A program made the translations under genes and the position numbers. A stretch of 50,247 nucleotides of DNA from Minisyncoccota bacterium (GTDB lineage Bacteria; Patescibacteriota; Microgenomatia; UBA1400; UBA12028): the NCBI GenBank assembly GCA_016211945.1, contig JACRHV010000008.1:1-50247 (forward strand), read 5' to 3'. A model generated the notes under the pieces. It did no database searches, was not told where the DNA came from, and was given only the letters and a program-made list of their open reading frames with translations. Positions 7,223 through 43,000 of the stretch are shown one piece after another (position 1 is the first letter of the stretch; the number at the start of each line of letters is the position of its first letter).

Positions 7223-8047
7223 ATGAAGACAGTAAAAGCAGCCGTTCAGGCAGAGAATAATGAAAAGACAGAAAAAAAAGCCTCAATGAAAATGATCTCA
7301 TTTACTGAAGTTGTGAACGCCAGTATTGCCCATTTCGGAACGGCGTTGCTCATTGTTGCTGCATTTTTAATCGGCATGTTGTGGACGGAAGTTCGTTATC
7401 TGAAGAAGGGCGTGGGGACGGCACCATCGTATGCACCGACCGCGCAAGCTCCAACACAACAGCAGAACCAACCACAGGAAACTCCGTTAACCGATGATCA
7501 ATGGAAGCAAGTTACTTCTGGAGCGGTGTTTGAGTTGGGAAAGAAGAACGCGCCTGTGACAATGGTTGAGTTTACTGATTATCAGTGTCCGTTCTGTGCT
7601 CGACATTTTACGGAAACCTATGGCAAACTTGTTGAAAACTATGTGAAGTCTGGAAAGCTTCGAATTCTTGTGCGAGATCTTCCGCTTTCATTCCATCCAA
7701 ATGCACGTCCGGGGGCGATTGCCGCTCGATGCGCAGGTGAGCAGGGGAAGTACGAACAGATGCATGACACGCTTTTTGGAAGTCAACAAGATTGGTCAAG
7801 TCTTGCAGGTGATGCGGCAAAACTGAAAATGAACGAATATGCCAAGAAAATTGGATTAAATACAGAAAAATTTGATCAATGTATAAAAGAAGAAAAATAC
7901 GGTAAAGACGTAGATGCTGATTTGGCGTTGGCAAACAAAGTTGGCGCAACGGGAACGCCAACGTTCTTTGTGAATAAAGAACGTATTGTCGGCGCTTTAC
8001 CGTATATAGATTTTTCAGCGCGAATAGACGCAATGTTAAAGAAGTAA
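7223..8047 (+). CDS. membrane-anchored DsbA-family thiol:disulfide oxidoreductase
   Basis: N-terminal TM segment (LLIVAAFLIGMLW), a Q/P-rich linker, then a thioredoxin fold with YQCPFC. GGGAGG ribosome binding site. Confidence 0.8.
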   Translation: MKTVKAAVQAENNEKTEKKASMKMISFTEVVNASIAHFGTALLIVAAFLIGMLWTEVRYLKKGVGTAPSYAPTAQAPTQQQNQPQETPLTDDQWKQVTSGAVFELGKKNAPVTMVEFTDYQCPFCARHFTETYGKLVENYVKSGKLRILVRDLPLSFHPNARPGAIAARCAGEQGKYEQMHDTLFGSQQDWSSLAGDAAKLKMNEYAKKIGLNTEKFDQCIKEEKYGKDVDADLALANKVGATGTPTFFVNKERIVGALPYIDFSARIDAMLKK

Positions 8048-8074: not shown

Positions 8075-8992
8075 ATGAGGGTATGTACAGTGAGTGTTGT
8101 TTTTGCGATAAGTACTTTTGTGGTGGTTGCCATGTCTCCGGCATACGTACGTGCAGCGCAAGAAACATCATTGCAACCCCAACAACTTCTGACCGTTACA
8201 CCACCTCCATTCGCAACCTCCTCAGGACAAACACAAGAAAAAGAACATACCATTGATATCACACAAACAACTGTTGAGACAAAAAGTAAACTTGCCGCGT
8301 ACCTCGATAGTGTTTCAATGACGCCGCGTTCTCCATTAAATATTATCCAGCATGCAATTCGCAACGCAGTGAACCAAGGCGTTCCCGCAAACATTCTTGT
8401 TTTATTATTATTGTTTCCTGTTACAGCATCACTTATCGCAATTTTTCGCCACATTATCGGACTACGAGGATTTGGTATATACACTCCCGCCGTTATTGCG
8501 GTGGCATTTATCTCCACAGGAATTGTTCGAGGACTCATTCTTTTTCTTCTTGTTTTTACTACAGTGATGGTTGGGAAGTCATTGTTGAATAGATTAAAAC
8601 TACAGTATCTTCCGCGCACTGCACTCTTGCTTTGGTTTGTTTCGTGTACGATGTTTGGTCTGCTCCTTCTCTCGCCGTACCTGCCAATAGCGAATCTTGC
8701 GAGTGTTGGAATTTTTCCATTATTGGTCCTTATTCTGCTTTCAGAAAACTTTTTAGAAGCGCAGATTTCCGGGAGCCTTCGTCGGGCCATCCAGCTCACC
8801 ATTGAGACGCTTGTTCTTGCAACGATTTCTGCAGTTTTCATGCGCACACTCGAGGTACAAAAATTTGTGATTATCTATCCAGAATTTACAATTCTCGCGG
8901 TGCTTTGTATAGATATTATTGTGGGGAAGTATACAGGCCTTCGTGTCTCTGAGTTTTTCCGATTCCAACCCATAATTGATCCGGAAGAATAA
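8075..8992 (+). CDS. 7-TM membrane protein of the type usually fused to an inactive transglutaminase (7TM_transglut-like)
   Basis: The track start at 8057 is TTG. ATG 8075 gives a signal-peptide-like MRVCTVSVVFAISTFVVVAMSPAYVRA. The C-terminal two thirds form about 7 helices (LIAIFRHIIGLRGFGIYTPAVIAVAFISTG). It is the immediate neighbour of the ATP-grasp gene. TATAAT at 8063-8068 lies 6 nt before the ATG. Confidence 0.55.
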   Translation: MRVCTVSVVFAISTFVVVAMSPAYVRAAQETSLQPQQLLTVTPPPFATSSGQTQEKEHTIDITQTTVETKSKLAAYLDSVSMTPRSPLNIIQHAIRNAVNQGVPANILVLLLLFPVTASLIAIFRHIIGLRGFGIYTPAVIAVAFISTGIVRGLILFLLVFTTVMVGKSLLNRLKLQYLPRTALLLWFVSCTMFGLLLLSPYLPIANLASVGIFPLLVLILLSENFLEAQISGSLRRAIQLTIETLVLATISAVFMRTLEVQKFVIIYPEFTILAVLCIDIIVGKYTGLRVSEFFRFQPIIDPEE

Positions 8993-8997
8993 CCACC

Positions 8998-10275
8998 ATG
9001 GTGAAAATTTCACACATCCTTGGAATGAACGGGCGCGATCAATTATATTGTGCGTTAAACAGTTATCAAGCAAAGAGGTATGGATTTTCGAAGTACGTCG
9101 CAAAAGAATTTTTTAAAAAACATAACATTCAAGTTGCACAACTCTACGGTATCGTAAAAAATGCTGAGCACATTCGCCGTTTTGATTGGGAAGGAGTTCA
9201 TGGTGGGTTTGCGGTCAAACCTTCAAATGGAAGCGCCGGAAAGGGTGTGCTTGTCATCAAAAAATATGATCATAAAAAAAGTGTATGGATCGATGTCGAG
9301 GGAAAACAGCATACGTCGGATGATCTACGATTTCATGCACAAAATATATTGGATGGACAGTACAGTACCTGGGGAACAACGCCGAATGTGATTATCGAAG
9401 AACGTGTTCCAATCCATCCCGATTTGGAACCGTATGTTCGATTTGGCACGCCGGATGTGCGCGTCATTGTCTTTAATAGAATTCCTGTGATGGCGATGGT
9501 GCGTTTACCAACAAAGGCTTCAGGAGGTCGCGCCAATCTTGACCAAGGCGCAATAGCGTTGGGAATCGATATGGGGACGGGAAAAACGATGTACGGGGTC
9601 TCGGGAAAGAAAAAAATTCTTCGAGAATTTCCTGAAACAACTCGAACAACCGTTGGATTACAGATCCCAAACTGGATCGATGTACTAAAAACTGCTGTAC
9701 GCGCAGCAAACGCGACAGGGTTACAGTACATGGGCGCAGATATTTTTATTCACCCCGAAAAGGGTCCGATGGTTGCAGAAGTCAATGCCTATCCCGGTCT
9801 CTCTATCCAACTCGCAAATCGTGCAGGACTTCGAAAGAGACTTCAACGTATAGAAGATATTGAGGCAAAAAATGTCAGTCAAGCTGTGAAGATTGGTCAA
9901 TCCCTTTTTGCTGAGAACTATCCCATCGAATCAGAAGGTGAGTTTGCAGTGATTTCCACAAAGGAGCCTGTGGAAATATTTGGCAAACACCACACTACAA
10001 TGCATGGGACAGCATTGATAAATACCTCAAGAGAGTGGAGTGCGATTTCTTTTTCTGCAGCAGAAAAACTTGGCCTTGCTGATAAGAATGATGTGTTGTG
10101 GACGCAGTACGTCGATGGAGAAACAAAAGAAGTTGTTGTCCAAGTGAAATATAAACTTCACGATGTTACAAAAACATCAGCGATGGTAGTTTCAAAACGA
10201 TTAAGTACAGGGAAATACATCATGCATTTGGGAAGAAAAGATCTTACGGGATATTTTATAGGAGTATCGCGATGA
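8998..10275 (+). CDS. RimK-related ATP-grasp peptide ligase fused to a C-terminal retropepsin-like (DUF785 / Zn_protease-type) domain
   Basis: ATP-grasp blocks FAVKPSNGSAGKGVLVI, VIIEERV, DVRVIVF, ANLDQGAIALGID and GADIFIHPEKGPMVAEVNAYPG. Residues about 316-425 (ALINTSREWSAIS...KYIMHLGRKDL) align to the RimK-associated retropepsin-like fold with NTS in place of DTG. Confidence 0.75.
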   Translation: MVKISHILGMNGRDQLYCALNSYQAKRYGFSKYVAKEFFKKHNIQVAQLYGIVKNAEHIRRFDWEGVHGGFAVKPSNGSAGKGVLVIKKYDHKKSVWIDVEGKQHTSDDLRFHAQNILDGQYSTWGTTPNVIIEERVPIHPDLEPYVRFGTPDVRVIVFNRIPVMAMVRLPTKASGGRANLDQGAIALGIDMGTGKTMYGVSGKKKILREFPETTRTTVGLQIPNWIDVLKTAVRAANATGLQYMGADIFIHPEKGPMVAEVNAYPGLSIQLANRAGLRKRLQRIEDIEAKNVSQAVKIGQSLFAENYPIESEGEFAVISTKEPVEIFGKHHTTMHGTALINTSREWSAISFSAAEKLGLADKNDVLWTQYVDGETKEVVVQVKYKLHDVTKTSAMVVSKRLSTGKYIMHLGRKDLTGYFIGVSR

Positions 10276-11267
10276 AAGTCCTTCAATCTGCAATTCAACT
10301 CCTGCAGCCGCTCAATAAAGAAGAGGAAAAACAAAAGTTCTTGTTTGATAAACAATACAATCCTCAATTCGTATACGAAAAAACCATGGATCCAAAAATG
10401 ATGAGAAAGTATGGATCAATTTCAGATGAATATCTTCCGCTTGCATTGTCAATTTTAAAAAAAGGAGTTGAGATACGCGGGGAAGAAGAAAGTTTTCTTG
10501 AACTTGTCGAAGGAGGGAAAATTGATCGACAACAAGTTGAAAAAAATATTATCGAATACTTGAAAAAGTACGGATTAGAAAGAAAAATGCAGATACATTT
10601 TTCAAAAAGATTTCTTTCTCCAACAAGTGTAACCTGGCCGTACATCAATATTCGATTACCAATCATCCATCGCGAACGGGGAATCATCTACACACTTCAT
10701 CATGAAATTGGGACACATGTTTTTCGCAGACTCAATGATGAGCGTCAACCTTGGTACGAAAAGAGAGAGGCGTATCATCTCCATCAACCATATGAAACGG
10801 AAGAGGGTTTGGCAGTGATCAATGCACATATCTTTCGATCACATCCGCTTTTATGGCAGTCAGCGCTGTACTATTACTCGGTGTATCACGGATCACGCAT
10901 GTCATTTTCAGAACTCTATAAAGATCTTCGGCAGTACACAGTGAGTGAAGATTCACGATGGAGTATGTGTATGCGGATAAAAAGAGGAATACAAGACACG
11001 TCTGTTCCAGGAGCGTTTTCAAAAGATCAAATATATCTTCGTGGAGTTATAAAAGTGTTGCGGTGGTTGAAAGCACATACGTTTGACCCGAGACCTCTAT
11101 ACATAGGAAAGATTGCGGTGGAGGATGTTGAGGTTGCACAACACCTGAACCCGCAATATATCCCATTATTACCGTCATTTCTTCAAGAAGATGCGATCGA
11201 AGAGTATAAAAAACGTGTCCATTTTTTGATTGAAGAAAACTCGCTTCACCACATACTTAATGCCTAG
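10272..11267 (+). CDS. DUF1704 / QEGLA-motif metallopeptidase (MATCAP-like carboxypeptidase family)
   Basis: HHEIGTH (HExxxH, codons at 10701-10718) and YETEEGLAV (the QEGLA-type motif). ATGA overlap with the ATP-grasp stop. Confidence 0.75.
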   Translation: MKVLQSAIQLLQPLNKEEEKQKFLFDKQYNPQFVYEKTMDPKMMRKYGSISDEYLPLALSILKKGVEIRGEEESFLELVEGGKIDRQQVEKNIIEYLKKYGLERKMQIHFSKRFLSPTSVTWPYINIRLPIIHRERGIIYTLHHEIGTHVFRRLNDERQPWYEKREAYHLHQPYETEEGLAVINAHIFRSHPLLWQSALYYYSVYHGSRMSFSELYKDLRQYTVSEDSRWSMCMRIKRGIQDTSVPGAFSKDQIYLRGVIKVLRWLKAHTFDPRPLYIGKIAVEDVEVAQHLNPQYIPLLPSFLQEDAIEEYKKRVHFLIEENSLHHILNA

Positions 11268-12195
11268 ATTGTAACGATGGTATCCACGCTTCTCCTTCCG
11301 ATAAGAGAAGAAGAACTACGTTAAGGTGTTCAGAGTTTTCCAATGTTGCACCCTGTGATGCTCGTGGTACATATCCAAGTAAATCATCGAACTCTTTTTC
11401 GATCGTTGTTATGTATTGTTCTACCTCTCGTTTAGCTGCATGTTGCATGCGCAATGCTAATGCAATCTCTGTCATGAGATCTTTACTTAAACTTTTCTGA
11501 AGATTTTTGAGTGCGTATTGTAATGGCTCCACAGTCCAATGGAATTGTGATAGTGGCGCATGTTGATAAAACAGACTGGAACAGATAACAAGATGTGTGA
11601 GTCCGTAATAGTAATTTGTGTACTCAGCCTCATCGATATATGTGTGATGATCAAACACACGTTGAAATTGGTGAGAAAATTCATCTACTTTATCCAAATA
11701 ACCAAAAAAGTAGAGGAAGAACATAACACAGCACGCATAGGTAGATGAAACAAGAAGTGGAGTATCTTTTTGTAGTATCTCTGTCACCACATCGGAAATT
11801 AGGGATTGAGGTATCGCTATTGATACTGATGATTGGACTGTTTTCAAATAAAATTGTGTGAGTAATGCCGAATATAGAAGTGGGAAAGAGGGAAATGTTG
11901 TCCAATACGAAAGTCGTTTTACATCGGACGGTTTTAGTGGAGATGTATTCTGTACCCGTCTCTGTGTTTCTTCCAGTAACATTAGAATGTCTTTTTCAAT
12001 AGACCGATATTGTCTCGATTGTTCTATCGTATGTTGTTTACTGTGCGTTATAAATGCGGTTCGATTTTCTTCTGTAGGACATGCAATAGCGACTCTGTAC
12101 AAGAAATGTCGTTGTTTTTCAAAAGAAAGGGCCGAAAAATTGTGAAGATATGTTTCAACGATACGTCGTGAGATTGGATGCATGATCGAGGTCAT
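11257..12195 (-). CDS. hypothetical alpha-helical protein
   Basis: 312-aa ORF convergent with, and overlapping by 11 nt, the DUF1704 gene. No family recognised. The true start may be Met5 (12183) because a TGGTATAAT box overlaps the first ATG. Confidence 0.5.
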   Translation of the reverse strand: MTSIMHPISRRIVETYLHNFSALSFEKQRHFLYRVAIACPTEENRTAFITHSKQHTIEQSRQYRSIEKDILMLLEETQRRVQNTSPLKPSDVKRLSYWTTFPSFPLLYSALLTQFYLKTVQSSVSIAIPQSLISDVVTEILQKDTPLLVSSTYACCVMFFLYFFGYLDKVDEFSHQFQRVFDHHTYIDEAEYTNYYYGLTHLVICSSLFYQHAPLSQFHWTVEPLQYALKNLQKSLSKDLMTEIALALRMQHAAKREVEQYITTIEKEFDDLLGYVPRASQGATLENSEHLNVVLLLLSEGEAWIPSLQSRH

Positions 12196-12235: not shown

Positions 12236-13303
12236 ATGAAACGTGTTGCGCTTGGAATGTCCGGTGGAGTAGATTCGTCTGTTTCAGCAGTCCTTTTACA
12301 AGAACAAGGATATGACGTAACTGGGGTATTTTTGGAATGTTGGAGAGCACCCGGATGTCGGGCGGAAGAAGACAGAAAAGACGCATTAGGAATAGCTTTG
12401 CAACGGGGAATACCGTTTGAGGTATTGGACTTTAAGAAACAATACAAAGAGAAGGTGGTCGAGTACTTTTTCACCGAGTACTCTGCGGGGAGAACGCCCA
12501 ATCCTGACGTTTTGTGCAATAAAGAAATAAAGTTCGGTATGTTTTACGATTGGGCGATGGCGCATGGATTCGATGGTATTGCCACAGGCCATTATGCCCG
12601 TGTAGGTGTTGTCGATGGACAAAAAGCACTATTACGCGGCACAGATGAGAAAAAAGATCAGTCATATTTTCTTTATCTTTTACATGAAGAACAACTTGAG
12701 CATATATTGTTCCCCATTGGTCATATGAAAAAATCAGAGGTTCGGATGCTTGCTGAAAAACACAACCTTTCAGTTGCGAAAAAACCGGATTCACAAGGCA
12801 TTTGTTTCATTGGAGAAATTAACGTGCATTCGTTTTTAAAGGAGCGGTTGGGTGAAAATCCTGGTGTTGTTGTCAATACGAAAGGAGAGGTTATTGGAGA
12901 GCACAATGGTTTGTGGTTTTATACGATAGGGCAACGACACGGATTTACACTTCGGGGAAAGATTCGATCAGATCATCATGAATGGAAACACGTGATTCCT
13001 CCATTTTATGTTATTGCAAAAGATGCGGAACACAATACACTTATTGTTGGATACGGAGAAGAAACATTGAGAGATCGTTTTATTATTCACCAAACGCATT
13101 GGATTGGAAACGCGCCAAGAGATCAAGGAATGCATGTTCGTATCCGGCACGGAGGAGCACTTCTTCCGGCAACGATAACGCAGAGAATAGAAAGTGAGGA
13201 TGTTGAAGTGAGGTTAACAACGTCAGCCCAAGGCATCGCTGAAGGTCAGAGTGCGGTGCTGTATAAAAACGTCACATGTTTAGGTGGAGGGGTTATCCAA
13301 TGA
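12236..13303 (+). CDS. mnmA: tRNA-specific 2-thiouridylase
   Basis: PP-loop GMSGGVDSSV, NPDVLCNKEIKF, DQSYFL, and a conserved C-terminal barrel. Confidence 0.92.
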   Translation: MKRVALGMSGGVDSSVSAVLLQEQGYDVTGVFLECWRAPGCRAEEDRKDALGIALQRGIPFEVLDFKKQYKEKVVEYFFTEYSAGRTPNPDVLCNKEIKFGMFYDWAMAHGFDGIATGHYARVGVVDGQKALLRGTDEKKDQSYFLYLLHEEQLEHILFPIGHMKKSEVRMLAEKHNLSVAKKPDSQGICFIGEINVHSFLKERLGENPGVVVNTKGEVIGEHNGLWFYTIGQRHGFTLRGKIRSDHHEWKHVIPPFYVIAKDAEHNTLIVGYGEETLRDRFIIHQTHWIGNAPRDQGMHVRIRHGGALLPATITQRIESEDVEVRLTTSAQGIAEGQSAVLYKNVTCLGGGVIQ

Positions 13304-14708: not shown

Positions 14709-14794
14709 GGAGTTTCTTTTCTTACTGCGCAAGCAATAATTTTAGTAAATTCCGTTAATTCTTTAAGTTAGATAAGAATCAAATTTCTTTTTTT

Positions 14795-16525
<1,731 letters not shown>

Positions 16526-17449: not shown

Positions 17450-17713
17450 TTATTTTTCTTGCATCTTTACCCACATCCTTTTGAAAAACGGTAGGGTCAG
17501 TGTTGAAAGCAAAAAACCTATCGTTGGAACAATCGTGTTTATCCACGGGTTAACTTGCAATATATACTGAAAATACAATCCAATCGCTGTGTACGTAAAC
17601 AACGCAATTAAAGCTTTTCTTGCCAAACTTCCTTCCCATTTCTTATCCATTTCTACCCGAGCATTACGCTCCTCAATGCGATGAACACGCTCTTCGATAT
17701 TCAATATTTTCAT
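17450..17713 (-). CDS. small membrane protein (charged helical N-terminus plus 2 TM)
   Basis: MKILNIEERVHRIEERNARVEMDKKWEGS followed by two hydrophobic helices. ATG 17713 forms an ATGA overlap with the upstream stop (Met16 of the track ORF). Confidence 0.55.
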   Translation of the reverse strand: MKILNIEERVHRIEERNARVEMDKKWEGSLARKALIALFTYTAIGLYFQYILQVNPWINTIVPTIGFLLSTLTLPFFKRMWVKMQEK

Positions 17714-18222
17714 ACTATTCCCCAACTTCCCTGTGCGACTTCTTTGTATATGTTGCATGAATCAACAGTCCATTTTTCGTCAAATTTTTGATGAATAAGT
17801 TCGGAGGAAATATTTCCTGCATTGTAATCAATCGTGGTATGTGCTCGGTATTGCGGAATAACTCCACTCGTAAATGGCGATGTATCGAGTTCGACATATG
17901 GTGCAATTGCTGACCCATAACGTTTGTGTAATTGTTCAAATATTTTCGCAGGTTCTATCTCCATATGCAGAATTTTTCGATCATGCTGTGTAAATACACC
18001 GACATTCCCAAACGATGCCATAAACACATCGAAATGAATACTTTTTATTGCACGAGTTACATCGTCTATTGTTGAATCATTTTTTATTGTAAACGGAGAC
18101 ACAATCGTGACATGATGAAAGTGAACGGGGCTAGGATGTCCAGTCATTTGTATACACATCTGATCGAGTTTGGCAACACAGTGTTTTGGGAGTGGAGTAG
18201 CAATAACATACCGCTGTGCCAT
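17710..18222 (-). CDS. 2H phosphoesterase superfamily protein (LigT/ThpR-like RNA 2',3'-cyclic phosphodiesterase / 2'-5' ligase)
   Basis: Two H-x-T-x motifs at the expected spacing (FHHVTIV and RAHTTID) in a 170-aa protein. Confidence 0.7.
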   Translation of the reverse strand: MAQRYVIATPLPKHCVAKLDQMCIQMTGHPSPVHFHHVTIVSPFTIKNDSTIDDVTRAIKSIHFDVFMASFGNVGVFTQHDRKILHMEIEPAKIFEQLHKRYGSAIAPYVELDTSPFTSGVIPQYRAHTTIDYNAGNISSELIHQKFDEKWTVDSCNIYKEVAQGSWGIV

Positions 18223-18245: not shown

Positions 18246-18845
18246 ATGCAAAACGGATATTTTCCAGGCCAGCAATCGGACGAACGCGTGTTGTATGAAG
18301 TGAAGCCGCACGTCTATGCACTGTACTTCAGTTTGGCGAAACTCTATGTACTTTCGCTCATCCTCGCAATCTTTCTTATCGCACTTTCTTCGATTCATTC
18401 TTCATTTTTTCTTCTTGGTCTTTTGCTTGGCGTAGGTATCGCGGCACTTGGTACTTGGATTATGACGGAGATGTACCATAAGAACATTTCGTACATCACC
18501 GATCGTCGCATTGTTCGTTTTGAAGCGGCAACTCCTTTTGCGACAAATGTTCGCGCGCTCACTTGGGATGAGGTAGTGAAGGTAAAAACATTTCCGCGAA
18601 ACGTACTATGGAAATCGCTGATGATCGGTACCGTAATCATTCACGCAGGATCAACCTACGTGCATACACACGTCCAAACTCGGGAAAATGTGTATACGAA
18701 TGATGATCTTGATCTAGAGCATGTGTATTATTACAAAGATTTAGGAAACTACATTGATAAAGTGCTCTACACATACAAGCATAAACCGGCAGAGCTGGCA
18801 GAGCTTCGTCCATTTGTTCCTAAGCCAACAGGGCAAAGATATTAA
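18246..18845 (+). CDS. membrane protein with bacterial PH (YdbS/YdbT-like, bPH_2) domain
   Basis: Two N-terminal TM helices, then ITDRRIVRFEAATPFATNVRALTWDEVVKV...GTVIIHAGS, typical of the membrane-flanked PH domain. Confidence 0.6.
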   Translation: MQNGYFPGQQSDERVLYEVKPHVYALYFSLAKLYVLSLILAIFLIALSSIHSSFFLLGLLLGVGIAALGTWIMTEMYHKNISYITDRRIVRFEAATPFATNVRALTWDEVVKVKTFPRNVLWKSLMIGTVIIHAGSTYVHTHVQTRENVYTNDDLDLEHVYYYKDLGNYIDKVLYTYKHKPAELAELRPFVPKPTGQRY

Positions 18846-18860
18846 ATTGAAGAGGAAATA

Positions 18861-19634
18861 ATGAAATATATGCTACAGATTCTTTTTAAGTCAACCTTTA
18901 TAACAACTTGTTCACTAGTAGCATTTTTTGTTATCCGCACAGTATTTCGCACAGATACGATGATAGCCGATATTGGTGTTTTAGGATTATTTGGATCGTT
19001 TTTTGGAGTCCTGTTCGGTATACTTTCTGCTTTTGTTGTTTTTGAGGTGTGGGGACAATACAACAAAACTGTTGCTCTTATTGAGAAAGAAGCAATGAAT
19101 TTAGAAAAGATTTTTCGTCTCGCATTTTATTTTAGAGATAAAAAATTTTTAACGAGCATGAAAAATGTTGTGAATAGATATATTGCCGTGGTATGTACTC
19201 AAGAATTTCCAGCACTTGCCCAAGGAAGTAGAACGAGTCCTGCTGGCAAAATTTTTCGAGAGATATCGCAGCTTATCTGCAATGTAAAATTTAATGATAA
19301 TCACGACCAAGTTGTTTTCGATCACATGTTAGCAGAATACAATACGCTCGCAGAAGTTCGTTCAGAAAGACTTGTCCAAAGTTTGGCACGACTGCCAAAC
19401 CTGTTACGAATTTTTCTCTATATGTCGTCATTCTTGGCAACATCTATACTTCTTGTTGCGCCAGTTATTGTTGTTCCTTTTGGTTTATTATGTACAGGTG
19501 GTTTTGTTTTTATTCTTTCTCTTGTTCTTCAGCTTGTTGAGGATCTAGATAATCCATTTGTTGGGTATTGGAATATTAATGTTGAACCTTACGAACGAGT
19601 ACAGAAACACATAAAAGAAGACTATACGTTTTAA
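18861..19634 (+). CDS. DUF4239-like membrane protein
   Basis: FGILSAFVVFEVWGQYNKTVALIEKEAMNLEKIFRLA plus C-terminal TM helices resembles DUF4239. GAAGAGGA ribosome binding site. Confidence 0.45.
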   Translation: MKYMLQILFKSTFITTCSLVAFFVIRTVFRTDTMIADIGVLGLFGSFFGVLFGILSAFVVFEVWGQYNKTVALIEKEAMNLEKIFRLAFYFRDKKFLTSMKNVVNRYIAVVCTQEFPALAQGSRTSPAGKIFREISQLICNVKFNDNHDQVVFDHMLAEYNTLAEVRSERLVQSLARLPNLLRIFLYMSSFLATSILLVAPVIVVPFGLLCTGGFVFILSLVLQLVEDLDNPFVGYWNINVEPYERVQKHIKEDYTF

Positions 19635-20292: not shown

Positions 20293-22331
20293 GTGAAGAG
20301 AATGTAAATAAAGTAAAGAAATTGAAATTGTAGGTTTTACATCTTTATAGAAATATAAAAAGATTTATCGTTTATGTAAACTCACGCAGATAGTGGATGC
20401 CTTGGCAATACATACCGAAGAAGGACGTACTAAGCCGCGAAAGTCGTCGGGGAGCTGCTACGAAGCGCCGATCCGACGGTGTCCGAATGGGGAAACCCAC
20501 TCTGGGTTATACCAGAGGGTCCGCCAGCCTTGTGCTGGGGAAGGGAACGCGCTGAACTGAAATATCTAAGTAAGCGCAGGAAAAGAAATCGAATGAGATT
20601 CCCTGAGTAAGCGACGAGCGAAAAGGGAACAGTCTAAACCGAGATTTATCTCGGGGTTGCAGGAGCCCAACATTGGATTGTAGTGATATAGCAGAACACC
20701 TCGGAATAGGTGGCCAAAGACCGTGATAGCCGGGTACGCGACATGTCAGTGCACCATAGGGATTTCCTAAGTACTTTCGAAGACGGCAAACTTCGTAAGG
20801 AATCAGGGGTGACCACACTCCAAGACTAAACATATGTATTGACCGATAGTGAACGAGTACCGCGAGGGAAAGGTGAAAAGAAGGGTCGAAGACCCCGTGA
20901 AATAGTACCTGAAACTATCTGCTAACAAGCAGACAGAGCCCGTAAGGGTGATGTCGTGCCTATTGAAGAATGAACCGGCGAGTTATGGTGTACTTCAAGT
21001 GTAAGCGGTTGCCACCGCGGACGCGTAGTGAAAGCGAGCCTGAATAGGGCGATGAGAAGTGCACTGTAGACCCGAAACCAGATGAGCTAACCATGTCCAG
21101 GCTGCAGGTGGGGTAAAACCCACTGAAGGGCCGAACCGTTTAGCGTTGCAAGGCTATCGGATGAGGTGTGGTTAGAGGTTATATGCCAATCGAATCTGGA
21201 GATAGCTGGTTCTCCCCGAAATATATTTAGGTATAGGCTCGTGATAAGCGCAATGGGGGTAGAGTACTGGATGAGTGCCTTGGTCGCAAGGCCAAGCACT
21301 TAACCAAACTGCGAATACCATTGTTGCATGCACGGGACTCAGTACGGCGGAGCTAAGTTCGTCGGGCAAAAGGGAAACATCCCAGACTCTCGTCTAAGGT
21401 CTCTAAAATTCCCTCAGTTGGGAAGGTAGTTGTCATCCTTAAACACCTAGGAGGTCGGCTCAGAAGCAGCCATCCTTGAAAGAAAGCGTAACAGCTCACT
21501 AGCCGAGGTTGACAGCGCCGAAAATGTACCGAGGATCAAGGGAATTACCGAAGACAGAGATTTTTATGTATTTTTTAAATATATAGGAGTGGTAGGGGAG
21601 CGTTCTGAGTGCTGTGAAGGCGGCGGGAAACCGATCTGCTGGAGCGATCAGAAGTGCGAATGCCGGTATGAGTAGCGTAAACGAAGTGAGAATCTTCGTC
21701 TCCGAATGTTCAAGGTTTCCGCACCCACGTTCGTCGTGTGCGGGTTAGGCGACCCTTAGGCGAGGCCACTCGGCGTAGCTGATGGATAACTGGTTGATAT
21801 TCCAGTCCTTGAGCGAGTTCGTTATTACTTGGGGAGGGACGGATTTGGATAGTGCATATGCCCGTAGTGAATGGGCCATCAAAGCAACGAGACAGTGTCT
21901 GCAGGCAAATCCGCAGATGTGTTTAATCGAGTTGTAATAGCAAGTGTGCTGAGCAATCAGCGCGCAAGATGCATGACTTCAGGTCCCTAGAAAAGCTTCG
22001 CAAGGAGAACTTGATCAATTCGTACCAATAACCGACACAGGTGAACTGGTAGAGTATACCAAGGAGAGCGAGAGAAAGTGGTTTAAGGAATTCGGCAAAT
22101 CTGCTGGGCGTACCTTTGGTATATGCCCTCCTCTTCGCAAGAAGAGGCGCAGAGAAAGTTTTGAGATCGACTGTTTAACAAAAACACAGGTCTGTGCAAA
22201 CTCGAAAGAGGACGTATACAGGCTGAAACCTGCCCAGTGCCGGAAGGTCAACTGCGAGAGTGGTATCGCAAGATACTGCTTTCAATTGAAGCCCCGGTGA
22301 ACGGCAGCAGTAACTATAACTGTTCTATGGT

Positions 22332-23040
22332 AAATCGTTGCCATAGTAAAACTTGGCCAAATGCTGGAAAACCTGAGTATGTTGCGCTAGTTGAATTTGG
22401 GTAAATTTCGGGTATTATGAAAGTAATGTCCAAAATCCCACTTTTTACTGACAATGCGTCAACTGCAGAAAATCAGCAGGAAAGACTTATCTTTGCCGGA
22501 TGGATTGTTGGTTTTGTGGATGGAGAAGGGTATTTTGGTGTGAGTATTAATAGAAATTCAAAAACAAAGTTTGGATTTCAAATACTTCCTGAGTTCGTTG
22601 TAACTCAGGGGGCCAAAAGTCTTACTTCACTTGAAAAGATACGAGAATATTTTGGTTGTGGAAGAATTTTTGTAAATAAAAGACATGATAATCATAAAGA
22701 AGATCTTTATCGATATTGTGTTCGGAATTTGCATGATATTTCAACAATTATTATTCCATTTTTCAAGAAATATTCACTAAAAACAGCAAAACATCAGGAT
22801 TTTGTAAGATTTTCTAAAGTAGTTGAACAAATGATTCAAAAGAAACATTTTTCTTTTGAGGGAATAAACTCAATCGCTTTAGAATTACAAAAAAATTAGA
22901 TAAGAATCCTCAACGACTATACGCCAGGCTCCAAAAGGAGAAGATATAGTCTGAACTTATGGGCGACCATAAGAGTGTACTAATCATGATTACACCGGCG
23001 AAAGCTGCAACAAGAAAAGATTGATAAACCAATCTATATA
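22332..23040 (+). mobile_element. group I intron in 23S helix 69-71 region (position equivalent to E. coli U1931)
   Basis: The exon reads gtaactataactgttctatggt | agcgaagtaccttgtc. Intron GCCATAG (22340-22346) pairs with exon CUAUGGU, with U-G at the splice site. The aagatatagtc core is at 22941-22951. The last intron base appears to be A, not G. Confidence 0.75.
22417..22899 (+). CDS. LAGLIDADG homing endonuclease (single-motif, homodimer type), intron-encoded
   Basis: LIFAGWIVGFVDGEGYFGVSI motif, 160 aa, located in a peripheral loop of the intron. Confidence 0.85.
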   Translation: MKVMSKIPLFTDNASTAENQQERLIFAGWIVGFVDGEGYFGVSINRNSKTKFGFQILPEFVVTQGAKSLTSLEKIREYFGCGRIFVNKRHDNHKEDLYRYCVRNLHDISTIIIPFFKKYSLKTAKHQDFVRFSKVVEQMIQKKHFSFEGINSIALELQKN

Positions 23041-23616
23041 AGCGAAGTACCTTGTCACTTAATTGGTGACGCGCATGAAAGGTCCAACGAGTCTCAAGCT
23101 GTCTTGAACCATTACTCGGCGAAATTGAAATGGCTGTGAAGATGCGGCCTACTGACAGTAGGACAAAAAGACCCCGTGAAGCTTTACTACAACTTGGCAC
23201 TGATGTTTTATACGGAATTGTTGAGAATAGGCGGGAGTGCGTGCCGCAAGGTACGTACACCAGTGAAATACCGCTCGTTTTGCATAGAATATCTTACTTA
23301 TCATGGCTGCATACGCCATGGAGGACACTGTCTGGCAGGTAGTTTAACTGGGGAGGTTGCTTGCGAAAGGGTATCGCAAGCGCGCAATGGTATCCTTGGT
23401 CCGGATGGAAATCGGACTGGAAGTGCAATGGCAAAAGGATGCTTAACTGTGAGGCAAACAGGCCGAGCAGATGCGAAAGCAGGTCATAGTGATCCTCGTG
23501 TGCTTTGTGGAAGGCACCGGGCTTAACGAATAAAAGCTACTCCGGGGATAACAGAGTCATCGCGCCTAAGCGTCCCTAGCGACGGCGCGGTTTGCTACCT
23601 CGATGTCGGCTCATTG

Positions 23617-23647
<31 letters not shown>

Positions 23648-23703
23648 GGTCTGTTCGCCCATTAAAGCAGTACGCGAGCTGGGTTCAGAGCGTCGTGAGA
23701 CAG

Positions 23704-24523
23704 CAGTAATCAAAGAGGCATTACTGTCTCAGCTACAGAGTGACGTATTTGAACAATGAGGTTCTGTTATAAAAATATGTAGCTCCACAAAAAGATTTGT
23801 GGAATAAATCTGACTAAATGCTGGAAACCCTCGTAAATATGTACTTACTAGTATATAAACTATATACTAGTGAAAATAGTTCATCAATGACCGTATGGTT
23901 ACGCGAGACAATCAGCAGGAAAGACTATGAAAACAATACATGATGAATATTTTATCGGTTTTATCGAAGGTGAAGGATGTTTTTATGTGAGCGTTGTTCG
24001 GTCACAAGAAACGACTTCCGGTTGGCAAGTAGTTCATTTCTTTAAGGTATCTCAGAATCCGAGAGGGAGAACAGTGCTTCGTGCATTGCAGAAACGATTG
24101 GGTTGCGGATATATTAAAGCAAATGGATCACAATCCTCTTCTGATAAATCGTTAGCGTATGTGGTACGTAATATTCTTGATTTACAAGAGAAGGTTATTC
24201 CTTTTTTGAAAGGGAAATTAATTATCAAACAAGAAGATTTTTCTCGATTTGAAAAAGTTGTAGAAATCGTTTCATTAAAAGCTCATTTAAAAAAGAGTGG
24301 AATGAAATGTATTCTTGATCTTGCATTTCAGATGAATACGAAGCAAAGAAAATATACGCGAAAAGAAATACTATCATCGTTTTTATAGAATCCTCACAGG
24401 CCATATGTCAGACATTACGCAAATAGCGTATAAAGATATGGTCGGATCTCTCTAGTGATAGAGAGTGCGATTTGAAAACTAGAAATTGAGTCGCCGATGG
24501 TAGAAATACCAGTAACATACATG
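23704..24523 (+). mobile_element. group I intron in the 23S peptidyl-transferase region (after the gagacag block, about E. coli 2603)
   Basis: The exon reads cgtcgtgagacag | (g)tcggcctctatcc. The core motif aaagatatggtcgg is at 24432-24445. G 24523 is a possible omega-G. Boundaries are uncertain by 1-3 nt. Confidence 0.65.
23927..24388 (+). CDS. LAGLIDADG homing endonuclease (single-motif), intron-encoded
   Basis: DEYFIGFIEGEGCFYVSV motif, 153 aa. Confidence 0.85.
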   Translation: MKTIHDEYFIGFIEGEGCFYVSVVRSQETTSGWQVVHFFKVSQNPRGRTVLRALQKRLGCGYIKANGSQSSSDKSLAYVVRNILDLQEKVIPFLKGKLIIKQEDFSRFEKVVEIVSLKAHLKKSGMKCILDLAFQMNTKQRKYTRKEILSSFL

Positions 24524-24865: not shown

Positions 24866-24983
24866 TCCCGGTCTTTAGAGCGATGTGGTCCGACCTCTTC
24901 CCATTCCGAACAGAGTCGTCAAACGCATCAGCGCCGACAATAATGCCCCCGCGAGGGAGTGTGAAGATAAGTCAAGGCCGGGA
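24866..24983 (+). rRNA. rrf: 5S rRNA
   Basis: Helix I pairs tcccggtct with aggccggga. Internal ccattccgaacagagtcgtcaaacgcatcagcgccga matches the loop C-helix III consensus (CCCATGCCGAAC...AGCGCCGA). It is followed by a T6 run. Confidence 0.85.
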
Positions 24984-40004: not shown

Positions 40005-43000
40005 TTACTCCATCTTGATGATCCAGTAGTTGAACTGAATATTTGTCGTAAGTGGTTGGTTTACCGCAACAGTAAATCCTAACCCATCCGATTTTTGTTT
40101 CACGTACAAGACTTGATTTTGTGTATTAGAAAGTGGTGTCAAGTAAATCAATGTGTTTGGAGCAACTTGTGTACTCGTCACCAAAACCTCTGTTGTTCCT
40201 GCTGGGATGGTGGCAGTTCCGGCACTCGCGTTTGCTTTTGCCTGTATGGCAAGTGTTGCGGACTCGGTGGCATTAGCAGAATCTGTTGCGTACTTTGGCG
40301 CGGCAATAGTAACAAGTTTGGTGGTGAGACTTTGGAACATTGCGGAACCGGATGCGGTAATCTCGCTGACTAACTCGCCGCGATTATTGTAGAGCGCCAA
40401 AAGGCGGGAGCGATTGGAGATGCCCGGGGCGAGCGTAAGCGCGGCAGAGTCCGTAACGATGGCATCGGCAAATGCAGCGCTCACCGTGGCATCTGTGCTA
40501 CCAATAAGTGAGGTCAAACCAATAGAAATTGATTCTGTTTGAATATCTTGTGTATAGATAGACCCATTCACATAGAGATTTCCGTTGATGGAAACATCGC
40601 CAGAATCGCTCAAAATCATACGGTTTCCAAGTAAACTGAGTGATCCACTTCCTGATGGTTGGATATATAAAGTAGTACTTTGTAATGATTCGTTACTGTT
40701 TGCGGTTGACGCCAGGCTAATACTATTGCCGGTGACAGTTAATGCTTGATTCGATCCATTCACGGTGAGTCCTGTAGAGAATTCGGCATAGTTGAAGTTT
40801 GCCAAGCCTTGGACAGAGAGGAACTCGTTGACCAGCACGGCGGTTGGAGCGATTACCTCGGTGTCGGCGACATGTGAGCCCGACTTCATATTTAATGCTG
40901 CGATGTATGCCGATGTGGAGGCGTCATTATCTGCAATCAGTGAGTTTATGAGCTCGAGTGTTGATGCTGGTGGCGTGTAGGTGATTGCACCACTTGCGGT
41001 TGCGGTGTCCATGGCATGTTGCACGGCGGATGAGATTTTGTCATCAAGACCAAAGATGCTTTGTGCGTTGATGTTGTCCGCGTACAACGTGCCAGAAATG
41101 GTGGCGTTGCCGCTGATCTGTGCATCGAGTGACTTAATAGACTCAATCTCGGCAAGCGCCGCTTGGAGTTTTTGCGCGCGGACAGATTTGGTGACAACTT
41201 CGCCGGAGAACGAGGCGTTGCCCTGGTTGTCAAACGAGGCGACGACTTCTGGATGTGTTGAGGTAGTGTTGATAATCTCGATATTCGTTGCGTTCAGTTT
41301 GAGTGCAACTGCAGAATCTGTGGCGTTGGTAGTAAGGAGGCCTGCGGAAACGGATGCGGTATGAATGACGTCTGCAACCAAACTGTTCACTTGTGCTTCT
41401 TGTGCAATAAGTTTGTCTGCCTCAACTTGACGAGCGGTAATGATATCAAAGGTGGCGCTGCTTACATTACCATTTCCGTCAAATGAGATTGCGGGGTCAA
41501 AGTAGGAGATGTTAATTGCAACATGGAGAGGAGTCTCGCCTTGTGAAGCATCCCATGACTCAACTGCACGTCCAATAATTTGTCCTGGCTGAATGGCCTT
41601 AGTGCCGTGGCCAGGAAGGGTGGAGGAAATAGTGATGGCATCGCCTGCTTGAATGGATGGGGAGGAAGGATCAATATTGACGGTGGTAACACCTTCAGTG
41701 ACAAGTGTTCGCACTGCAAGTGTTGCGTTGTTGACACGAGTGCGGTGAATGATTGCGCCAACATTTTCGTTGTCAGAAATGATACCAACCATGGTTTGAA
41801 GATCTTGTGTTGTGCGTTGGACAGGGGAAATGGTTCCAATAGAAATGGTTTGTGATGTGTTTGATGGATCTTGCTCTTGATGGTAATTGATTTTGACAAT
41901 ATGTCCAACCTCTGTAATAGGTGAGAGTACAAATTGTTCATCTTGTGAGACAACAATCGTAGTTGAGGTGGTGTCGATGGCGTCTGTTGGGTCAAAGTAA
42001 GAAGGTCCTATAAAGACAAGCACTTCACCACACATATCTCCGGTTGATGCACCATTTACAACACATGGAGACAATGATGATTGTGCTGTTAATGGCTCAA
42101 GCGCTTTTCCAATAATTTGCCCACGTTGTGTTGCTTTCATACCAACACCTGGGATATCTGATGAGGTGATTGCATCACCACGCGTAATCTCGCCATTCTT
42201 GAGTGTGACGCGTGTTGGGACACGACCAGCAAGCGCCATTTGAACACTTCCTTCATTTTTGTCACCAATAAGCCATCCGGCTTTGGTTGAAACAACACCA
42301 AGAATAGCGGGGTCATATGCTTTTGAAGAAGGGATAACCCTCTCGTTGTTGTTTGGATCAACAGAAATAATGGTTGCTTGTGTTACATCTGCAGAAGCAG
42401 GGATCCACTCAGCAAGGTCTGATCCAGCATCTTTGGAACAGTAGGTGAGTTGGATGTAGGGGGCGTTAGTGCCGGCAACAGAACCTTCATTATTAATCGT
42501 GACGCCTGTGGTACTACTGTTTATTGCGTTATACGTGTATGGTCCTCCTTGTGCAAGACCTCCATTTGCTCCTCCAGCTGCACCACTCGTATTGATGGAG
42601 TGGGTGTGACCTGGATCTGTAATTCCATGGTTATGCTGACCCACTGGTCTATTTTCTGTATTCGAAAGAGCGGTTCCAACAGTAGCACCTATAGTTCCAG
42701 AAGCTGGTGTTCCAACAATATATCTTCCCCTTGCCGCGGTGTACTCTGTCCATCCTGCTGGACAGGTAGATGCGAATGCTGCAATTTGTCCTTGAGTTTC
42801 TGGTATTGAGACCCTACCCCAAGACGTTCCATTACAATAATAGTAGGCGTTTTGTGAAGCATCATAATATTCTTTACCCGCAGCAGCAGTGTTACATGTT
42901 CCGGCTGCTGCTTGGAATGTTGGTGCGAGGGAAAAAGTTCCTGAGATTGTTGCTGATCCAGCGACATCAAGTTTTGTGGCTGGGGAAGTGGTGCCGATAC

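Follow-up and report, generated by a model that had tools for sequence, protein, structure and literature searches.

Which molecule would a bacterium modify with an ATP-grasp ligase and a relative of human MATCAP, encoded side by side with a membrane protein? This question is raised by three genes on contig JACRHV010000008.1 of a Minisyncoccota bacterium (GenBank assembly GCA_016211945.1), of which a stretch of 50,247 nucleotides (nt) was analysed (positions 1 to 50,247 of the forward strand; hereafter referred to as the window). Three co-directional open reading frames (ORFs) on the plus strand, at 8075–8992, 8998–10275 and 10272–11267, encode a seven-transmembrane (7TM) protein, an ATP-grasp amidoligase and a MATCAP-like peptidase. 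The first two are separated by 5 nt (CCACC), and the ligase stop and the peptidase start share a 4-nt ATGA overlap (10272–10275), so the ORFs and junctions are as tightly packed as an earlier reading of this DNA, made without database searches (the sequence-only reading), had described. Our analysis indicates that the ligase and the MATCAP-like enzyme are probably an antagonistic pair acting on acidic C-terminal tails. More tentatively, and with a little less than even confidence, we propose that the locus is a Patescibacteria variant of the RimK/RimB and RloABC polyglutamate systems, in which the C terminus of the 7TM protein would be the acceptor and the MATCAP-like enzyme the eraser. The RloABC operon of Pseudomonas aeruginosa has been studied both genetically and structurally (Lormand et al. 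2025, mBio; PMC12239564).

The ligase gene (8998–10275, plus strand) encodes a 425-residue, cytoplasmic, RloC/RimK-related protein with a retropepsin-like domain fused at its C terminus. The ATP-grasp catalytic module (9037–9855, plus strand; residues 14–286, the span of the PF14397 alignment) matches PF14397 (ATPgrasp_ST) with an E value of 7.8e-56 (189.8 bits against a cutoff of 31.4), accompanied by a RimK-family signal. Its best NCBIfam match is TIGR02291 ('alpha-L-glutamate ligase-like'), at 235.7 bits, below the equivalog cutoff of 314.2; judged by these profiles, the protein is a PF14397/TIGR02291-like family member and not an equivalog. Nor is it a RimK equivalog (40.6 bits against a cutoff of 143.4 for TIGR00768, and 20 bits against 331 for PRK10446), and it matches the TTL Pfam model with an E value of only 0.013. 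We modelled the whole ligase with AlphaFold2 from a 38-sequence alignment (mean predicted local distance difference test score (pLDDT) of 85.7). A Foldseek search with this model returned RimK (5zct, 7qys and 7qyr) as the best match, followed by ArgX (3vpb) and LysX, with E values of about 1e-10 for RimK 5zct/7qys and ArgX 3vpb, whereas Ddl and cyanophycin synthetase ranked lower. RimK is a poly-alpha-L-glutamate synthetase, and for RimK, LysX and ArgX alike the acceptor is the C-terminal carboxylate of a protein, to which they join an amino acid. The ATP-grasp signature residues K74, E134/E135, D248 and E261-x-N263 are invariant in the ligase family. Thus, the hidden Markov model (HMM) searches and the fold both place the protein with RimK, LysX and ArgX, in agreement with the RimK-related ATP-grasp amidoligase of the sequence-only reading. 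The assignments which that reading had named as contrary outcomes, a ligase belonging with Ddl or a carboxylase and a peptidase outside DUF1704, are not those returned by the HMM searches and the ligase fold. Family membership points to glutamate as the amino acid that the ligase would add. The ATP-grasp part also matches an unannotated 584-residue ORF on a plasmid of Halobacterium sp. DL1 (locus L007, 5176–6930; 35% identity, E value of 7e-38), and the RloC-like ligase family therefore reaches haloarchaea.

The third gene (10272–11267, plus strand) encodes a putative zinc metallocarboxypeptidase of the MATCAP family, whose 331 residues comprise the catalytic domain alone, without a signal peptide. 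The protein matches PF08014 (MATCAP) with an E value of 8.6e-23 (81.3 bits against a cutoff of 27). Its score against TIGR02421 (QEGLA) is 79.2 bits (E value of 3.5e-22), compared with an equivalog cutoff of 338.65, and its motif reads EEGLA, not QEGLA. The HHEIGTH motif (HExxxH) is encoded at 10698–10718 and the EEGLA motif at 10800–10814, both on the plus strand. In a phmmer search, residues 10–325 aligned with human MATCAP/KIAA0895L (7z5g; E value of 2e-55, 192 bits) with the HEIGTH and TEEGLA segments in register, and HE[IV]GTH and TEEGLA are conserved in 115–120 of 120 peptidase homologs. The PF08014 match and this full-length alignment uphold the view of the sequence-only reading that a DUF1704/QEGLA-type protein with HHEIGTH and EEGLA motifs is the counterpart of MATCAP.

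What that reading had missed is how unusually close the peptidase is to eukaryotic MATCAP. In a word-indexed search, the matches pass from Patescibacteria proteins straight to vertebrate MATCAP1/2 and protist transcripts, at 34–37% identity. An exhaustive search of representatives likewise found short (about 320 residues) and long (430–1,070 residues) proteins interleaved from about 215 bits downwards, and the long proteins that were looked up are MATCAP1/2 of shark, frog and annelid. The animal homologs carry 100–300 additional N-terminal residues, whereas the window peptidase begins at the catalytic domain. By contrast, its identity to the DUF1704/QEGLA members of Vibrio, Photobacterium and rhizobia is 24–29%. 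The PF08014 model is centred on the proteobacterial members, scoring 342 bits for Vibrio and 270 bits for Phyllobacterium, compared with 81 bits for the window protein and 53–65 bits for animal MATCAPs. In a neighbour-joining tree (59 sequences, 321 columns, 200 bootstrap replicates and four outgroup sequences, with the label 'Patescibacteria' partly inferred), the Patescibacteria and eukaryotic proteins excluded the QEGLA-type outgroup in 200 of 200 replicates; the eukaryotic proteins were monophyletic in 194, whereas the Patescibacteria proteins formed a group to the exclusion of eukaryotes in only 10. This topology, which is no more than suggestive, would place eukaryotic MATCAP inside the Patescibacteria radiation and is a hint that the tubulin detyrosinase/deglutamylase arose in bacteria or was transferred long ago. 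The MATCAP/TMCP carboxypeptidases take residues one by one from the acidic tails of tubulin and also shorten polyglutamate side chains (PMC10499314), an activity that would suit the partner of a glutamate ligase. By analogy with these homologs, the window peptidase would be a sequential C-terminal exopeptidase.

Two observations concern the QEGLA-type relatives. In Vibrio sp. HDW18 (L088, 4975–6966), the QEGLA protein is a 663-residue fusion of an N-formylglutamate amidohydrolase-like domain (PF05013) with a MATCAP domain. In Photobacterium, low salinity induces a QEGLA gene and its 'GshB' ATP-grasp neighbour 27–38-fold (PMC10308900), which echoes the osmotic phenotype of the Rlo system.

If the ligase writes and the peptidase erases, what is the second protease-like element of the locus doing? 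The all-beta C-terminal domain of the ligase (9949–10272, plus strand; residues 318–425) was modelled in isolation with AlphaFold2 (residues 312–425, pLDDT of 85.3). Foldseek matched this tail to the DUF785 protein Lpg0085 (2pma, TM-score up to 0.68), RloA and RloA2 (9g58 and 9g59), Ddi1 and retroviral proteases; the RloA and RloA2 crystal structures date from 2025 (PMC12239564). At the sequence level, the window tail alone gave no retropepsin match in Pfam even at E ≤ 10, and a profile of 30 family tails gave no match among PDB sequences. Individually, 18 of the 30 family tails weakly match retropepsin-clan Pfam models, and the tail of one full-length homolog from the clade with an active-site DTGA motif (L068) passes PF05618, the RloA/RimB family, at 27.6 bits. 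We consider the tail homologous to retropepsins because of the fold matches, these weak per-member matches and the PF05618 match of L068. The protease-like domain that the sequence-only reading had seen in cis on the ligase is thus real as a fold, with the correction that its catalytic Asp is replaced.

The catalytic column was located with hhalign, and the alignments against single RloA sequences and a five-sequence DUF785 profile (E values of 0.012–0.035) were used for that purpose only. The tail profile is co-linear with RloA-family sequences over 82 columns (E value of 0.012, weak statistics), with a near-invariant N-T-G opposite the invariant catalytic D-T-G and GRkDL opposite LLGR. In the window protein the triplet is N342-T-S (AAT ACC TCA, 10021–10029, with the N342 codon AAT at 10021–10023), and GRKDL stands in place of LLGR. 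Across 120 homologs, the residue at the catalytic position is Asn in about 112, Ser in two, His in two and Asp in three, with one sequence truncated. The same Asp-to-Asn substitution, D48N, served as the experimentally dead control for RloA in Lormand et al. (PMC12239564), and the domain is therefore predicted to be a catalytically dead pseudo-protease. With the cis retropepsin dead, the MATCAP-like enzyme is probably the only eraser at the locus. The Asn and the basic residues R345, K386, K400 and R413 are nevertheless more than 90% conserved in the tail family, which argues for a retained non-catalytic function, such as acidic-peptide binding; the domain is probably an acidic-tail binding or dimerisation module.

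A candidate substrate for the pair is encoded by the first gene of the operon. The 7TM gene (8075–8992, plus strand), with an RloB-like 7TM module, encodes 305 residues when read from the ATG at 8075; translation might also begin six residues earlier, at an in-frame TTG (8057). A profile search matched residues 112–306 to PF14402 (7TM_transglut; E value of 9.4e-29, 101 bits), and the protein matches the C-terminal half of the NCBIfam RloB model with an E value of 1e-23 (NF052267; 83.9 bits against a cutoff of 900, with model positions 315–506 alone matched). The N-terminal 138 residues have no transglutaminase domain and no other Pfam match, consistent with the transglutaminase-less 7TM protein of the sequence-only reading. 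The layout comprises a signal or anchor segment (residues 1–27), about 80–85 poorly conserved external residues, seven transmembrane helices and a C-terminal tail. In a family-wide hydropathy analysis, the predicted inside loops and tail contain about 11.3 Lys and Arg residues, compared with about 2.3 outside, and on account of this excess the C-terminal tail is predicted to be cytoplasmic, in agreement with the RloB topology as described. The ligase and peptidase, both without signal peptides, would then share a compartment with this tail.

The tail, IVGKYTGLRVSEFFRFQPIIDPEE (8918–8989, plus strand), which includes the peptide SEFFRFQPIIDPEE, ends in ...RFQPIIDPEE, with the terminal Glu-Glu codons at 8984–8989. 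Among 1,368 7TM homologs, the best 120 are nearly all about 300–330 residues long, and 112 of these 120 closest homologs also end in EE. The terminal Glu run has two (n = 81), three (n = 25) or four (n = 6) residues and is preceded by a fixed motif, G-x-Y-T-G-L-R-x-x-E-[YF]-x-R-F. As a background, EE ends occur in 4 of 482 (0.8%) other ORFs of at least 200 residues in the same loci, and the 7TM gene is the sole one among window ORFs of at least 100 residues to end in this way. The RloB proteins of Legionella and Aeromonas keep the R-F motif without an EE end, and the acidic end is therefore specific to the MATCAP-bearing Patescibacteria clade. Escherichia coli ribosomal protein S6, the acceptor of RimK, also ends in -EE, as does detyrosinated alpha-tubulin. 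This conserved end had escaped the sequence-only reading. Given its conservation, its location and its co-variation with the other components (described below), we propose the terminal Glu-Glu as the likeliest acceptor of the ligase and as the end from which the carboxypeptidase would work.

Relatives of the ligase are present in at least 594 species-representative genomes, and the 425-residue architecture occurs widely among Patescibacteria, in lineages such as Microgenomates, Woesebacteria, Pacebacteria and Shapirobacteria; many of the records are titled 'uncultured Pseudomonadales', which we took to be placeholder names. The nearest genome is that of Microgenomates bacterium GW2011_GWC1_46_15 (68% identity). 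A survey of gene neighbourhoods, a check suggested in the sequence-only reading, showed that many Patescibacteria genomes contain the trio amid varying flanking genes, and it is therefore not a chance juxtaposition. Locus counts were made on the 80 best loci. In 74 of 75 evaluable loci, the ligase gene is immediately preceded by the 7TM gene on the same strand, mostly at a distance of 0–15 nt, whereas a MATCAP gene immediately follows the ligase gene in only 47 of 74, commonly with a 4-nt overlap at the junction.

This difference allowed the traits to be compared across 72 loci, 46 with and 26 without MATCAP. When MATCAP is present, the catalytic residue of the ligase tail is Asn in 42 loci, Asp in two, Lys in one and His in one, and the 7TM protein ends in -EE in 36 of 46, with most of the others still ending in Glu. 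When it is absent, the residue is Asp in 21 loci, within a canonical DTGA, and Asn in five, and 24 of 26 7TM proteins have a non-EE, typically basic, end. Thus, the presence of MATCAP goes with the loss of the retropepsin Asp. In three loci without MATCAP, a stand-alone PF05618 retropepsin of about 120–150 residues with an intact DTGA directly follows the ligase (L018, 6286–6717; L046, 4535–4894; L065, 6281–6742; 34–46 bits against a cutoff of 27); L018 and L046 are two of the five MATCAP-less loci in which the fused domain is dead (NTG). A hydrolase is therefore almost always supplied, as a fused active retropepsin, a stand-alone retropepsin or MATCAP, a pattern which suggests that MATCAP substitutes for the retropepsin as the eraser. 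In a tree built from the ATP-grasp part of the ligase alone, the loci fall into graded states: DTGA with no MATCAP and a basic 7TM end; DTGR; NTKR; NTGR with a stand-alone retropepsin or MATCAP and a weakly acidic 7TM end; and a large crown clade with NTGR, MATCAP and -EE.

Some loci contain more than one ligase. Operons of the DTGA clade (L063, L068, L069, L072, L073, L075, L076 and others) have one or two extra RimK-like ATP-grasp genes of about 300 residues (PF08443, 93 bits), and these could represent initiator and elongator ligases. The L004 locus has the MATCAP trio plus one extra RimK-like ligase (11226–12191).

Taken as a cycle, the proposed mechanism would run as follows. The cytoplasmic RimK-like ligase would add alpha-linked glutamates to a C-terminal carboxylate, with the encoded -EE end of the co-encoded 7TM protein's cytoplasmic tail as the acceptor. 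The dead retropepsin-fold domain would bind the acidic tail or dimerise the ligase. The MATCAP-like zinc carboxypeptidase, whose gene is translationally coupled to that of the ligase, would strip the C-terminal glutamates singly. The balance between writer and eraser would set the length of the tail and might thereby tune the envelope or osmotic function of the 7TM protein. The writer/eraser pairing had been proposed in the sequence-only reading and is strengthened by the homologs, as RimK makes alpha-polyglutamate tails and MATCAP/TMCP enzymes take off C-terminal residues singly and shorten polyglutamate chains (PMC10499314). The RloA and RimB retropepsins cleave polyglutamate, and in Pseudomonas the loss of the hydrolases is toxic under hypo-osmotic stress, a toxicity suppressed by the loss of rloB or rloC (PMC12239564). 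Because rloB and rloC mutations suppress the loss of rloA, the 7TM protein and the ligase act upstream of the hydrolase, and these genetics fit the proposed direction of the writer/eraser cycle.

Other accounts of the same genes have to be weighed against this one. The ligase might polymerise free or exported poly-alpha-glutamate, or another acidic peptide, with the 7TM protein exporting or anchoring it, the MATCAP-like enzyme controlling its length or level in the cytoplasm, and the -EE end docking a partner such as the pseudo-retropepsin. RimK can make free poly-alpha-glutamate, according to a reference cited in PMC4431377, and free polyglutamate was raised as a possibility by the authors of the RloABC study (PMC12239564). 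Pseudomonas RloA is periplasmic, so its substrate must cross the membrane, for which RloB is the only membrane component, and proteobacterial RloB proteins work with the same ligase family without an -EE end. We nonetheless judge this account unlikely for the window locus, because the retropepsins (fused or stand-alone) and MATCAP of this clade lack signal peptides, which points to trimming in the cytoplasm. A tail that served for docking only would also explain poorly why the Glu run varies from two to four residues while the very end stays Glu, and would give no account of why -EE appears together with an exopeptidase specific for C termini. Alternatively, the pair might act on another protein, ribosomal protein S6 or some other acidic tail, with the 7TM protein as a regulator or sensor of the ligase. 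RimK/RimB is a precedent, RloA cleaves polyglutamylated RpsF in vitro (PMC12239564), and the extra RimK-like ligases of the DTGA clade indicate that such operons can hold several ligases. This seems quite improbable, given that the window ligase falls short of the RimK equivalog model (TIGR00768), that the invariable partner of the ligase (74 of 75 loci) is the 7TM protein, and that a substrate elsewhere leaves the link between the 7TM -EE end and MATCAP unexplained; neither the window nor any fetched locus contains an S6 gene. We give still less credence to an envelope or small-molecule amidoligase whose acceptor for the amino acid would be a cell-wall precursor, glycan or metabolite, with the MATCAP-like enzyme as a peptidoglycan or peptide carboxypeptidase. 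The name of the PF14397 family ('sugar-transfer associated'), the lower-ranking Ddl and cyanophycin synthetase fold matches, the cell-shape and beta-lactam phenotypes of Rlo mutants (PMC12239564) and a glycosyltransferase near the trio in L001 all speak for it. Yet the best fold and HMM matches are ligases acting on protein C termini, no sugar-transfer gene is conserved beside the trio at the loci inspected, and every MATCAP relative or RloA/RimB enzyme characterised so far works on acidic peptide tails.

Several points also weigh against reversible polyglutamylation of the 7TM tail itself. A strict -EE end is missing from ten of the 46 loci with MATCAP, and in two of those ten the 7TM protein ends in Lys or Arg; three NTKR loci lack both MATCAP and a nearby retropepsin. 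Fisher's test of the trait co-variation gives p = 3.5e-9, a value that is not phylogenetically independent and overstates the support; we give it little weight, since the states fall into a few nested clades and reflect a small number of stepwise transitions. Glutamate specificity is likewise less than secure, since both the TIGR02291 and the TIGR00768 scores lie below the curated cutoffs, and for every member of the clade the activity is predicted from homology. As proteobacterial RloB proteins have no -EE end, the tail cannot be the universal substrate of the ligase family, and the -EE end could be a docking motif instead of an acceptor.

In Pseudomonas, RloBC-type systems are important for tolerating antibiotics, forming biofilms and surviving osmotic stress, and their substrate is an acknowledged question (PMC12239564). 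The Patescibacteria variant points to a concrete candidate, the cytoplasmic -EE tail of the 7TM protein itself. Across the loci, which form a natural series, a retropepsin endopeptidase gives way to a MATCAP exopeptidase and the old domain is kept as a conserved pseudo-enzyme, a clean example of non-orthologous displacement within one operon. Human MATCAP has its closest prokaryotic relatives among operon partners of a glutamate ligase, which supports the trimming of acidic tails as the ancestral job of the family, and acquisition from bacteria may explain the patchy eukaryotic distribution of MATCAP noted previously (PMC10499314). The boldest version, a self-contained counterpart of the tubulin-tail code, with a primed -EE end reversibly polyglutamylated, the dead retropepsin as its reader, and the Patescibacteria MATCAP lineage as the source of the eukaryotic enzymes, seems to us less likely than not. 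Reversible addition of polyglutamate to the C terminus of a membrane protein would represent a new type of post-translational regulation in bacteria. Our literature search found nothing linking MATCAP to Patescibacteria or proposing an RloB-type C terminus as an acceptor, although parts of this scheme may have been predicted earlier.

The upstream DsbA-like gene (7223–8047) and the downstream DUF3541-like gene (11257–12195, minus strand) were both considered and rejected as members of the system, as neither is conserved beside the trio in L001 and L002. The latter (E value of 9.6e-14) is convergent with the MATCAP gene, overlaps its 3′ end by 11 nt and is probably unrelated. An anti-phage defence system was also rejected, as PADLOC models gave no match at E ≤ 0.01 to the four proteins scanned. 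A promoter and terminator scan yielded counts no better than those in shuffled sequence, and no claim about operon boundaries was drawn from it. The tRNA 2-thiouridylase gene mnmA (tRNA_Me_trans) lies one to three genes downstream of the trio in the window (12236–13303) and in several other Patescibacteria loci, such as L001 (12876–14066) and L004 (12995–14107), a placement that represents local synteny, with no obvious functional link.

Elsewhere in the window, the rRNA genes are non-contiguous. The 16S gene (14789–16244) and the 23S gene (20370–23756) are about 4.1 kb apart, and the 5S gene is at 24867–24983. The 16S–23S spacer contains two tRNAs, a 2′-5′ RNA ligase-like gene (17710–18222, minus strand), an unassigned ORF (18246–18845) and a bestrophin-like gene (18861–19634). 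The 23S gene spans 3,387 nt, compared with 2,925 nt for the model, and encloses an ORF (22417–22899) for a LAGLIDADG homing endonuclease (PF00961, E value of 1e-24), which indicates an intervening sequence or intron in the gene. A giant ORF of 3,302 residues (40005–49916, minus strand) encodes three Laminin_G_3/concanavalin-like lectin domains (E value of 1.4e-59) and is probably a surface or adhesion protein.

How does the locus compare with the systems already known? The sequence-only reading, which knew of no substrate, needs amending in that systems of this kind are by now partly characterised, the homologous RloABC operon having been studied by genetics and structure (PMC12239564). With RloABC the window locus shares a PF14397/TIGR02291-like, RloC-type ligase, the PF14402 7TM module that forms the C-terminal half of RloB, and a DUF785/PF05618 retropepsin. 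The 7TM and ligase genes are co-operonic in both (with a gap of 5 nt in the window), and a hydrolase is expected to counter the product of the two. By contrast, RloB has a periplasmic inactive transglutaminase domain that the window 7TM protein lacks, and RloA is secreted with an active D-T-G, whereas the window retropepsin is fused to a leaderless ligase and reads N342-T-S. The window locus further adds a MATCAP-family carboxypeptidase, and its 7TM protein has the conserved -EE end that is missing from the Legionella and Aeromonas RloB proteins. The sequence-only reading cited a comparative-genomic prediction of a ligase, 7TM and QEGLA association in Proteobacteria (Iyer, Aravind and colleagues, 2009); at both proteobacterial rlo loci that we inspected, a retropepsin takes the place of the partner, and not a QEGLA protein.

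As in RimK/RimB, a cytoplasmic ATP-grasp ligase would extend an acidic C terminus with alpha-glutamates and a cytoplasmic hydrolase would trim it, and RimK is the nearest solved fold. The window ligase is, however, not a RimK equivalog, the candidate acceptor is a membrane protein of the same operon instead of S6, and the eraser would be a metallo-exopeptidase, whereas the RimB type is an aspartic endopeptidase. The QEGLA proteins of TIGR02421 belong to the same Pfam family as the window peptidase, PF08014, but differ from it in their 24–29% identity, in the window motif EEGLA and in its score far below the TIGR02421 cutoff; in the Vibrio example the MATCAP domain is joined to a formylglutamate-amidohydrolase-like domain, and its gene does not adjoin a 7TM/ligase pair. 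The tubulin code, with MATCAP1/MATCAP2 (TMCP1/2; KIAA0895L/KIAA0895) and the TTL/TTLL ligases, offers a likeness of another kind. In the window, an ATP-grasp ligase for C termini stands beside a peptidase that is homologous to the MATCAP catalytic domain over its full length, the candidate end ...D-x-E-E resembles the detyrosinated tubulin tail, and a writer and an eraser would meet on an acidic C-terminal tail, as they do on tubulin. Unlike its eukaryotic counterparts, the window peptidase has no N-terminal microtubule-binding extension and no tubulin in its context, the ligase is of the RimK/RloC type and not the TTL type, and the genes stand together in an operon of a bacterium.

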